A DNA stretch of 64,000 nt. Origin: a virus. Taxonomy: Duplodnaviria; Heunggongvirae; Uroviricota; Caudoviricetes. Under the pieces are notes generated by a model. It had not been told where the DNA came from. It searched no databases and saw only the letters and a program-made list of their open reading frames with translations. The translations under genes and the position numbers were made by a program. The stretch lies in the IMG/VR virus record IMGVR_UViG_3300029702_000002; one strand, 5' to 3'. The first letter of the stretch is position 1. Every line of letters starts with the position of its first letter. Positions 53,616 to 54,761 of the stretch are shown in pieces.

Positions 53616-54761
53616 ATGAAATACATAAAATCTTCTTCGTTGCTGGCATTAACTTTGCTTTTTAGCTCTGGATTCGTTAACGCAGACAATAAACAAACGT
53701 TGATAGAAGCCGCTACCGCAGGTGATACCGCAGCACAAAGTGAGTTAGGGACAAATTATTTGGATGGTGTCAATGGTTTTGATAAGGATGTAGTTGAGGC
53801 AAAGAAGTGGATTGATCTCGCTGCAGAAAAGGGAGATAAAGTAGCATATTATGCACTTGGAGTTATGTACACATTTGGCGAGGGTGTAGATAAAGACCTA
53901 AATAAAGCTGTTGAGTACTACAAACTTGCGGGGGATGCTCGTGAAGGTAGAGCCTACAACAATCTTGGTGCTATTTATCAAAAGGGGATGCTTGGTAAAG
54001 TAGATCATGCACTCGCCATTAAATACTTCAAACTAGCCTCTGATGTCGGGTATGTTAAAGCAACTTCAGTTCTTGGGGCGTATTACCAATATGGTAAAGG
54101 CGTTAAAAAGAATTATAAAAAGGCTTTTACTTATTACAAAAAGGCGGCAGACCAAGGCAGTTCAGAAGCTATGATAGGATTAGGAATACTATACGATGAT
54201 GGGTTAGGCGTTAAACGCAATGATGCAGAAGCAGTTAAGTGGTATAAAAAGGCAGCGGAACTTGGAAACGCCGACGCCATAACCAATCTTGGCATTATGT
54301 ATGAGAATGGGGAAGGTGTAAAAAAGGACTATAAAAAAGCAGCCGACCTTTATCAGACTGCTTGCAATAAAGGAGAAAAAAGAGGCTGTGAATACATTGC
54401 TGAACTGAAAGAAAGCGGAAAATATCGAGTATCTGATTCCAAAGCCAAATCAAAATCAGATGTACAGCGACTTATTGCTAAATCCATTGATAAAGGCGTT
54501 AACGCAACATTTACCTGGCAGGGTGATGATGCCGTCTTCACCGCTAATGATGGCAAAGTTGACTGCACCTTCTTGAAGGATTTTTCAGAGAAAGGAGGCA
54601 ATCTGGCTACCTCGTTTGTTTGCACCGATAACGTTCAAATCATCCTGAAGCAATTCAGAGATACCAAGAATGCCTACCTCGCGGTAATGACTGACAACTT
54701 CAACACAGAAGTTAAATCATTTTCGGTCAATGTTTACGTGACTAATACTGGTTCAAACTAA
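53616..54761 (+). CDS. secreted Sel1-like repeat protein (start at Met of signal peptide MKYIKSS)
   Basis: Signal peptide; at least six Sel1-type repeats (A..W..KAA.QG...A...LG..Y..G.GV..D..KA). Confidence 0.75.
   Translation: MKYIKSSSLLALTLLFSSGFVNADNKQTLIEAATAGDTAAQSELGTNYLDGVNGFDKDVVEAKKWIDLAAEKGDKVAYYALGVMYTFGEGVDKDLNKAVEYYKLAGDAREGRAYNNLGAIYQKGMLGKVDHALAIKYFKLASDVGYVKATSVLGAYYQYGKGVKKNYKKAFTYYKKAADQGSSEAMIGLGILYDDGLGVKRNDAEAVKWYKKAAELGNADAITNLGIMYENGEGVKKDYKKAADLYQTACNKGEKRGCEYIAELKESGKYRVSDSKAKSKSDVQRLIAKSIDKGVNATFTWQGDDAVFTANDGKVDCTFLKDFSEKGGNLATSFVCTDNVQIILKQFRDTKNAYLAVMTDNFNTEVKSFSVNVYVTNTGSN

Follow-up and report, generated by a model that had tools for sequence, protein, structure and literature searches.

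What might a temperate phage gain from carrying, in the midst of its replication genes, a gene whose product is apparently meant for export from the host cytoplasm? The question is raised by a 64,000-nucleotide stretch of DNA (termed here the window) from a member of the Caudoviricetes, IMG/VR record IMGVR_UViG_3300029702_000002. There, among minus-strand genes for an ATP-dependent ligase, two conserved hypothetical proteins (phrog_5055 and phrog_4248), a DnaG-like primase and a DnaB-like helicase, lies a plus-strand open reading frame (ORF) at 53616..54761 (termed here the Sel1 gene) that encodes a protein of Sel1-like repeats (SLRs), with a divergent lipoprotein gene beside it. The gene is already on record: its product is the RefSeq "tetratricopeptide repeat protein" WP_094259622.1, plasmid NZ_JCANNN010000002.1 carries identical annotated genes, and the protein matches phrog_8741 over its full length (E=1.7e-206), a family that PHROG labels "unknown function". 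Public annotation thus gives no function, and it overlooks the C-terminal domain; a search of the literature on SSU5 and phage-plasmids with Sel1, or on Sel1 with exclusion or morons, found no paper on such a gene. What is new here is a prophage-cargo SLR protein that is fused to an undescribed beta-barrel and whose alleles show a cassette-like mosaicism; its function is tentatively read as that of a periplasmic binder or inhibitor.

The ORF begins with an ATG and specifies 381 residues, and RefSeq gives the same coordinates on an identical plasmid; the longest frame, 53571..54761, starts with a TTG. Translation from the ATG at 53616 places a predicted signal peptide at the N-terminus: after the basic segment MKYIK come a hydrophobic core (Kyte-Doolittle about 1.9 over residues 6-21) and the sequence VNA/DN. 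This n-, h- and c-region layout is present in all full-length homologues, the sequence itself being divergent, and residues 1-22 are disordered in an AlphaFold2 (AF2) model of the full-length protein, which was built from 11 family sequences. The part that follows matches Pfam Sel1 (PF08238) in six stretches (E=8.4e-53; 175.4 bits versus a gathering cut-off of 30.7), and AF2 models it with a predicted local distance difference test score (pLDDT) above 90 over residues ~30-265 as 14 helices, that is, as six helix pairs plus N- and C-terminal capping helices. Both the hidden Markov model score and the right-handed alpha/alpha-solenoid form therefore place the protein among the SLR proteins, and the 36-residue period is visible in the DNA as 108-nt repeats at 54091, 54199 and 54307. 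The four cysteines of the mature protein form two invariant pairs, namely C250-x7-C258 in the last repeat and capping helix, at the spacing seen in Helicobacter Hcp proteins, and C317 with C336 in the C-terminal domain; both pairs would fit an oxidising compartment. It has no lipobox. Pfam, AF2 and the N-terminal features bear out a preliminary description of this gene, made from the DNA sequence alone, as encoding a signal-peptide-bearing protein with at least six Sel1 repeats; what that description overlooked is that residues 285-381 form a separate, non-Sel1 domain, that the alleles of the gene are mosaics and that it can occur apart from the lipoprotein gene.

When the model was compared with the Protein Data Bank (PDB) by Foldseek, the top 14 matches were all SLR proteins (E 1e-15 to 1e-11), those at E~1e-15 being Oxalobacter SLRs, EsiB (4bwr), LceB and LpnE of Legionella and HcpC of Helicobacter, with 31-39% identity over ~245 columns; lower matches include SEL1L/Hrd3, AlgK and PA5086/PA5087, among other repeat proteins (eEF2 kinase, SPINDLY, APC/C). 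Among solved E. coli structures the nearest is EsiB/c5321 (36% identity over 246 columns, E=1.3e-15); this match, with HcpC, LpnE and LceB also near the top and with the Hcp-like cysteine pair, suggests a host-interaction or virulence-type SLR protein that would be released (e.g., in vesicles), bind an animal-host protein and serve as a conversion factor for colonisation; carriers do come from gut, blood and urine isolates. Similarity of this kind reflects the repeat consensus, however, and not function; the gene is not linked to any secretion system or route of export across the outer membrane, Pantoea from plants and the environment have homologues too, and the conserved barrel would be left unexplained, so that such a role seems quite unlikely. 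The protein might instead regulate or scaffold a host envelope machine in the periplasm without inhibiting anything, on the models of the sensor-kinase regulator ExoR, the stator protein MotX, the polysaccharide-export scaffold AlgK and the permeability protein MerG, for these are the nearest named SLR families in NCBIfam (E 5e-22 to 5e-9, sub-threshold). Their scores fall 4- to 12-fold below the curated cut-offs, though, for which reason they were rejected as family assignments; these families have no C-terminal barrel, and the partner genes (mer, flagellar, alg) are not nearby, all of which makes this explanation very doubtful.

The C-terminal domain is the best-conserved segment of the protein, the 54 invariant columns of the family alignment being concentrated there. 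Because the full-length AF2 model left it at pLDDT ~45-55, it was then modelled alone, and in this form the last ~97 residues are confidently predicted to fold as an 8-stranded beta-barrel, with C317 and C336 on neighbouring strands. Compared with Pfam, the domain matches no family even at E<=10, and among PDB sequences it matches nothing below E=0.5. An exhaustive phmmer search of 1.84 billion cluster representatives returned nine clusters, seven of which are the same family or fragments of it; the remaining two are weak matches to Ig-like repeats (Big_5/PKD; E 1e-5 to 8e-5) that depend on a short VNxTFTW motif, and an Ig-like identity was dropped on that ground. A follow-up profile search found nothing beyond the same narrow family. 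To judge from these searches, the domain is a near-orphan that has not been described before. Its predicted fold, on the other hand, resembles those of PliC/MliC lysozyme inhibitors, of a type VI secretion system (T6SS) immunity protein and of lipocalin-like barrels: fold comparison gave DUF4251 (9.5), DUF1842 (8.8), the Bacteroides T6SS immunity protein BtaiB (8.1), the PliC lysozyme inhibitors of Brucella (8.1) and Salmonella (8.0), E. coli YdhA/MliC (7.4), avidins (about 6.5-6.9), Neisseria ACP (6.1) and outer-membrane barrels (7-7.9). Within a viral structure library the best matches are phage proteins of ~110 residues, one of them annotated as a "putative lysozyme inhibitor".

A barrel of the last kind listed would be embedded in the outer membrane, where it would serve as an anchor tethering the SLR array to the inner face. 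Outer-membrane barrels are marked by strands of ~10 or more residues and by a C-terminal aromatic beta-signal; six of the eight strands modelled here are only 6-8 residues long, in a domain of ~95 residues, and the C-terminus (...VYVTNTGSN) has no such signal and varies among homologues. Together with the disulfide pair, these features argue against a membrane barrel and make an anchor highly improbable. A periplasmic location is, by contrast, what the conserved signal peptide, the invariant cysteine pairs, the absence of a lipobox and the non-membrane character of the barrel point to in common.

The two modules differ in their history. E. coli elements carry versions of the protein with 335, 381 or 417 residues, corresponding to 5, 6 or 7 repeats. 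Between the window and either of two related elements (L008 and L014), the 97 barrel codons are identical in DNA (proportion of synonymous differences pS=0); over the SLR part the same comparisons give 49-63% protein identity, with synonymous sites saturated. L014 and the window have repeats 1-2 in common (87% amino acid identity), but not repeats 3-7. Among distant homologues the nonsynonymous divergence (dN) is 0.17-0.25 in the barrel versus 0.33-0.49 in the SLR part, and in base composition the barrel-coding part (GC content at third codon positions, GC3, of 0.47) is backbone-like, unlike the SLR part (GC3 of 0.32 versus 0.45-0.52 in backbone genes). Wherever it can be measured, the ratio of nonsynonymous to synonymous divergence (dN/dS) is 0.07-0.2, which indicates purifying selection and hence a functional gene. 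Positive selection on the SLR region was considered and dropped, since dN/dS lies well below 1 everywhere; the variability of this region is accordingly ascribed to recombination of old alleles rather than to any detectable positive selection, with unequal crossing-over between the 108-nt repeats possibly adding to it. Old SLR alleles of 5-7 repeats on identical barrel DNA amount to an arms-race-like architecture.

An architecture of variable and constant parts also fits the evolution of polymorphic toxin-immunity systems, and the protein could be an orphan periplasmic immunity factor against a toxin used between bacteria (a colicin-like protein, or a T6SS effector with phospholipase or muramidase activity), which would guard the lysogen from its neighbours and not from phages. 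The fold similarity of the barrel to BtaiB is consistent with this, as are the Foldseek matches to PA5086/PA5087 (ranks 41-42), which are SLR proteins acting as T6SS immunity proteins, and the setting of a chromosomal homologue in Pseudenterobacter (P0006), which lies among haemagglutinin-repeat (Fil_haemagg_2) genes, one of them with a PT-VENN toxin-delivery domain, and adjoins insertion-sequence (IS) genes. A cognate effector is nevertheless absent nearby in all contexts examined, the similarity is at the level of the fold only (6-10% identity), the PA5086/PA5087 matches are weak (E~1e-5; template modelling score, TM, 0.3) and the carriers are mostly ordinary plasmids of commensal and livestock E. 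coli; an immunity protein is for these reasons rather doubtful.

The host element of the Sel1 gene is an SSU5-like E. coli phage-plasmid: the 24 kb around the locus share 96-97% identity with SSU5-group phage-plasmids of Escherichia (phage CMS-2020a, Cyrano and PhiR41_1) and ~80% with phage SSU5 of Salmonella. Within this backbone, homology to Cyrano (by BLASTN) ends at 52905 and resumes at 54778, and in Cyrano itself CYRAN_34 is followed directly by the primase gene; the DNA in between (termed here the cassette) comprises the lipoprotein and Sel1 genes and recurs with 100% identity in E. coli plasmids of 108-111 kb, among them CP057798.1 and NZ_JCANNN010000002.1. What occupies this site, between the phrog_4248 gene and the primase gene, varies from one element to the next: the lipoprotein gene and the Sel1-barrel gene in the window; the Sel1-barrel gene without the lipoprotein gene in L008, a contig in synteny with the E. 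coli elements; a Sel1 gene in L013 (Enterobacter hormaechei), whose contig ends inside it; and an unrelated 321-residue plus-strand ORF without a Pfam match (SSU5_041) in phage SSU5. An SSU5-like primase and helicase occur in 253 of 5426 complete E. coli genomes (about 5%), and some part of the cassette in 96 of these 253 (~38%); the lipoprotein gene together with the 5' portion of the Sel1 gene occurs in 59. Among 50,697 phage records there is no full-length homologue of the protein (tblastn gives only generic Sel1 matches of at most 61% coverage), nor does the cassette find a match there by megablast. Its GC content is 40.4% versus 45.3% for the window; flanking repeats or att-like sites were sought at its borders, where only 10-11-nt matches occur, as expected by chance. 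In some plasmids that are still maintained the locus is interrupted by IS26 or IS100 (L015 3211..4389 and L016 4349..5675): IS26 truncates the Sel1 gene after ~145 residues in L015 and IS100 truncates the adjacent primase gene, and yet these plasmids persist.

Presence/absence polymorphism at a fixed site and a deviant base composition are the marks of a moron, and the locus is moron-type cargo in a hotspot flanked by a conserved hypothetical gene and the primase gene; of this status, and of the anatomy set out above, there is little doubt. The product might conceivably be part of the virion structure or an accessory factor essential for replication of the phage-plasmid, inasmuch as the gene lies inside the replication block and its 3' end overlaps that of the primase gene by 9 nt (54753..54761, stop codons included), an overlap that L008 and L013 keep identically despite their divergence. 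The gene is absent, however, from the plaque-forming phages Cyrano and SSU5 and from some 60% of the related elements in E. coli, it lacks a full-length homologue in the phage records, its disruption by IS26 in L015 leaves the plasmid maintained, and its product is predicted to be exported; hardly any credence is left for this explanation, which was rejected together with that of an outer-membrane barrel. The preliminary description had named a conserved virion component in relatives as the finding that would overturn its proposal of a lysogenic-conversion or exclusion factor; the absence of the cassette from Cyrano and SSU5 speaks otherwise, and the proposal holds as far as accessory cargo is concerned (patchy occurrence, foreign composition, moron sites), while the activity itself is something that we infer. 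It had also rightly placed the Sel1 gene within a minus-strand replication block, for both cargo genes lie inside the ligase/primase/helicase block, and the lipobox and orientation agree with its account of a lipoprotein gene divergent from the Sel1 gene.

The lipoprotein has the N-terminus MSKKKLILTGALLSLFALVG-C21, with the lipobox LFALVG-C21. Under the Lol sorting rule the lysine at +2 predicts an outer-membrane lipoprotein. The protein matches phrog_2320 (E=1.9e-39) and is the RefSeq "hypothetical protein" WP_000038288.1; compared with Pfam at E<=10 it belongs to no family. In other temperate phages its N-terminal domain of ~80 residues is joined to peptidoglycan-binding domains (SPOR or PG_binding_1), which hints that this domain (phrog_2320 and relatives) may have a cell-wall-related role. 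Such fusions are found in Pseudomonas phage AUS531phi (L019 2480..3133) and in Acinetobacter and Paracoccus phages, sometimes within clusters of tail genes. A homologue of the lipoprotein (47-48% identity) stands alone beside ogr and int in P2-like Enterobacter and Salmonella prophages; members of the Sel1-barrel family, for their part, include a 422-residue protein whose gene comes after the tail-fibre genes where a lambdoid prophage ends, and another on a 1.5-Mb replicon of Pantoea. Since each gene occurs alone elsewhere, the two are independent morons stacked here, and they are not an obligate unit.

The reading favoured for the Sel1 protein, that of a periplasmic binder or inhibitor, is given a probability of roughly 40%. 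Export by the Sec pathway and cleavage would yield a soluble periplasmic protein of ~39 kDa with two modules: a six-repeat SLR alpha-solenoid acting as a protein-binding scaffold and, joined to it by a flexible linker, the small, disulfide-containing 8-stranded barrel that defines the family. The protein would stoichiometrically bind or inhibit some other protein active in the periplasm, with the swappable SLR array setting target specificity and the invariant barrel supplying a constant function. The most plausible target would be a peptidoglycan-cleaving enzyme, whether the tail lysozyme or transglycosylase of an incoming phage, a T6SS muramidase, an animal lysozyme or a lytic transglycosylase of the host, and its inhibition would protect the lysogen, making the protein an exclusion or conversion factor. 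The outer-membrane lipoprotein would be a second, separable envelope cargo that may modulate or anchor the SLR protein, though it is dispensable in some elements. An inhibitor of peptidoglycan enzymes is the most economical hypothesis because the precedents for the SLRs, the barrel, phage T4 Spackle and the lipoprotein domain (compared below) all point the same way; a peptidoglycan hydrolase as the specific target is still a tentative choice, and somewhat unlikely as it stands. Taken to its limit, the hypothesis would make the cassette a mobile periplasmic "anti-muramidase" module, in which the orphan barrel represents a new class of lysozyme or lytic-transglycosylase inhibitor, the SLR array retargets it (to phage tail lysozymes, T6SS Tge effectors or animal lysozyme) and the lipoprotein serves as an anti-inhibitor or anchor in the style of IltA/LiiA, the whole conferring Spackle-like exclusion or immunity and being spread by SSU5-like phage-plasmids and other prophages; in this complete form it is decidedly doubtful.

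Several observations weigh against a periplasmic binder or inhibitor. The signal peptide was called from sequence features, without a trained predictor. No membership in any inhibitor family was found by sequence (Pfam, E<=10); specifically, the barrel is at most 10% identical to PliC/MliC (8-15% across PliC, MliC and ACP) and has no Pfam MliC match at that threshold. The similarity of the SLR part is generic and identifies no partner. PADLOC-DB v2 returned only a marginal match between PtuA1 and 39 residues of the Sel1 protein (E=1.2e-05, no passing stretch), and none for the lipoprotein. The independent occurrence of the lipoprotein and SLR genes implies that a partnership like that of IltA and LiiA is not obligatory. 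As regards expression in lysogens, sigma-70-like sites lie between the two genes at 53385-53412 and 53440-53467 (plus strand) and at 53522-53494 (minus strand), and the count of such promoter matches in this region is not above shuffled expectation.

The positions of the features of the locus are collected in Table 1.

Table 1. Features of the cargo locus and of the adjoining primase gene, in window coordinates
Feature	Position	Strand	Basis
Accessory two-gene cassette, 1872 bp; 39 bp at the same site in Cyrano	52906..54777	.	BLASTN breakpoints
GC-rich hairpin just 3' of the lipoprotein stop codon, possible terminator without a T-run	52937..52963	-	RNA fold
Lipoprotein gene, predicted outer-membrane type, 137 residues, lipobox LVG-C21, Lys at +2	52970..53383	-	ORF and sequence features
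Divergent intergenic region, 232 bp, 32% GC, presumed promoters of both cargo genes	53384..53615	.	Composition
Predicted Sec-type signal peptide (residues 1-23), predicted cleavage VNA/DN	53616..53684	+	Hydropathy, n/h/c-region layout, kept across homologues
Sel1-like repeat solenoid (residues 24-270), six repeats plus capping helices	53685..54425	+	Pfam, AF2, Foldseek
Lys/Ser-rich linker (residues 271-284)	54426..54467	+	pLDDT <50; most divergent segment of the alignments
C-terminal conserved domain (residues 285-381 plus stop), predicted soluble 8-stranded beta-barrel, invariant C317/C336	54468..54761	+	
DNA primase gene of the backbone, convergent to the Sel1 gene; context, outside the cargo function	54753..55874	-	Pfam DNAG_N/Toprim_2, RefSeq coordinates

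The hairpin beyond the lipoprotein gene has a 9-bp stem, and the 76-nt segment that contains it folds at -24 kcal/mol (z=-2.9); a scan for consensus terminators did not call it, and found no canonical terminator. On the primase side, the last ~8 codons of the primase gene co-vary with the presence of the Sel1 gene (KGIAALV versus LGIKALS in Cyrano).

Other parts of the window are of note as well. A plus-strand ORF at 58423..59190, encoding 255 residues, matches over its full length the single-gene anti-phage defence system PD-T4-3 (PADLOC E=1.3e-23) and also matches the Pfam family LEM-3-like GIY-YIG; it is an insert in the minus-strand replication and partition block, and Cyrano has a different, minus-strand gene there. 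Between a glutaredoxin gene and a cluster of tRNA genes, in the lowest-GC kilobase of the window (~30% GC), an orphan plus-strand ORF of 302 residues (47244..48152) has no match in Pfam or PADLOC; since the position holds different cargo in relatives (a 431-residue ORF in L008, other genes in Cyrano), it marks a second cargo hotspot. The tRNA cluster (48331..48783, minus strand) consists of tRNA-Ser(tga), tRNA-Thr(tgt) and tRNA-Asn(gtt), and its Thr/Asn pair is ~90% identical to that of phages P1 and P7, a likeness suggesting exchange between P1-like and SSU5-like phage-plasmids. A 96-residue minus-strand ORF (49563..49853), without a Pfam match, is called "C-type natriuretic protein" in RefSeq and in SSU5, a name that is implausible for a phage gene and probably a propagated annotation artefact.

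The function of the Sel1-barrel protein matters inasmuch as the variable cargo of SSU5-like phage-plasmids is what changes the host. If the protein does neutralise a peptidoglycan hydrolase or another effector acting in the periplasm, then the known set of exclusion or immunity factors would gain a modular member whose specificity can be swapped; an uncharacterised domain and PHROG 8741 would gain a function, and phage-therapy escape or lysozyme tolerance in carrier strains would become easier to predict. If it does not, then the gene is one more unannotated moron, whose main value lies in showing clearly what a cargo hotspot and mosaicism within a gene look like in phage-plasmids.

Among known systems, the protein shares with EsiB/c5321 (4bwr), HcpC (1ouv), LpnE (6deh), LceB (8sxq) and the Oxalobacter SLRs (6ok3) a signal peptide and a solenoid of 36-residue alpha/alpha repeats. 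None of these has a C-terminal 8-stranded barrel, however, the window gene is mobile prophage cargo with mosaic alleles, and the EsiB chain in the PDB is longer (467 residues) than the six-repeat window protein. With PliC, MliC and ACP (4mir, 3oe3, 2f09 and 6gq4) it has in common a small periplasmic 8-stranded antiparallel barrel, predicted in the present case, which unlike theirs is fused behind an SLR array; the signature loop motifs of MliC/PliC, SxSGAxY and YxxxTKG, are not apparent in it by eye.

Inhibition of peptidoglycan enzymes by SLR proteins has precedents in EnhC, which inhibits SltL in Legionella (reviewed in PMC5608400), and in the periplasmic protein IltA (PA3978), which inhibits the lytic transglycosylase MltF in P. 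aeruginosa and is countered by the outer-membrane lipoprotein LiiA (PA5502) (PMC10746161). The likeness of the latter pair to the cassette lies in the combination of an SLR protein with an outer-membrane lipoprotein, encoded here side by side but separate elsewhere; IltA has three repeats and an alpha-helical C-terminus, as opposed to six repeats and a barrel, and the two genes of the window lie on a mobile element. Precedents for protection of the lysogen or infected cell come from the periplasmic T4 protein Spackle, which inhibits the gp5 tail lysozyme and thereby causes superinfection exclusion (PMC7677548), and from T5 Llp and phi80 Cor, lipoproteins of ~60-80 residues that block FhuA (PMC9586334). 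Although neither Spackle (which is small and helical) nor Llp or Cor has any detected relationship in sequence or fold to the window proteins, all are phage-encoded, exported to the envelope (as is predicted here) and dispensable for the virion, and what Spackle, Llp and Cor do for the cell that carries them is to protect it against incoming phage.

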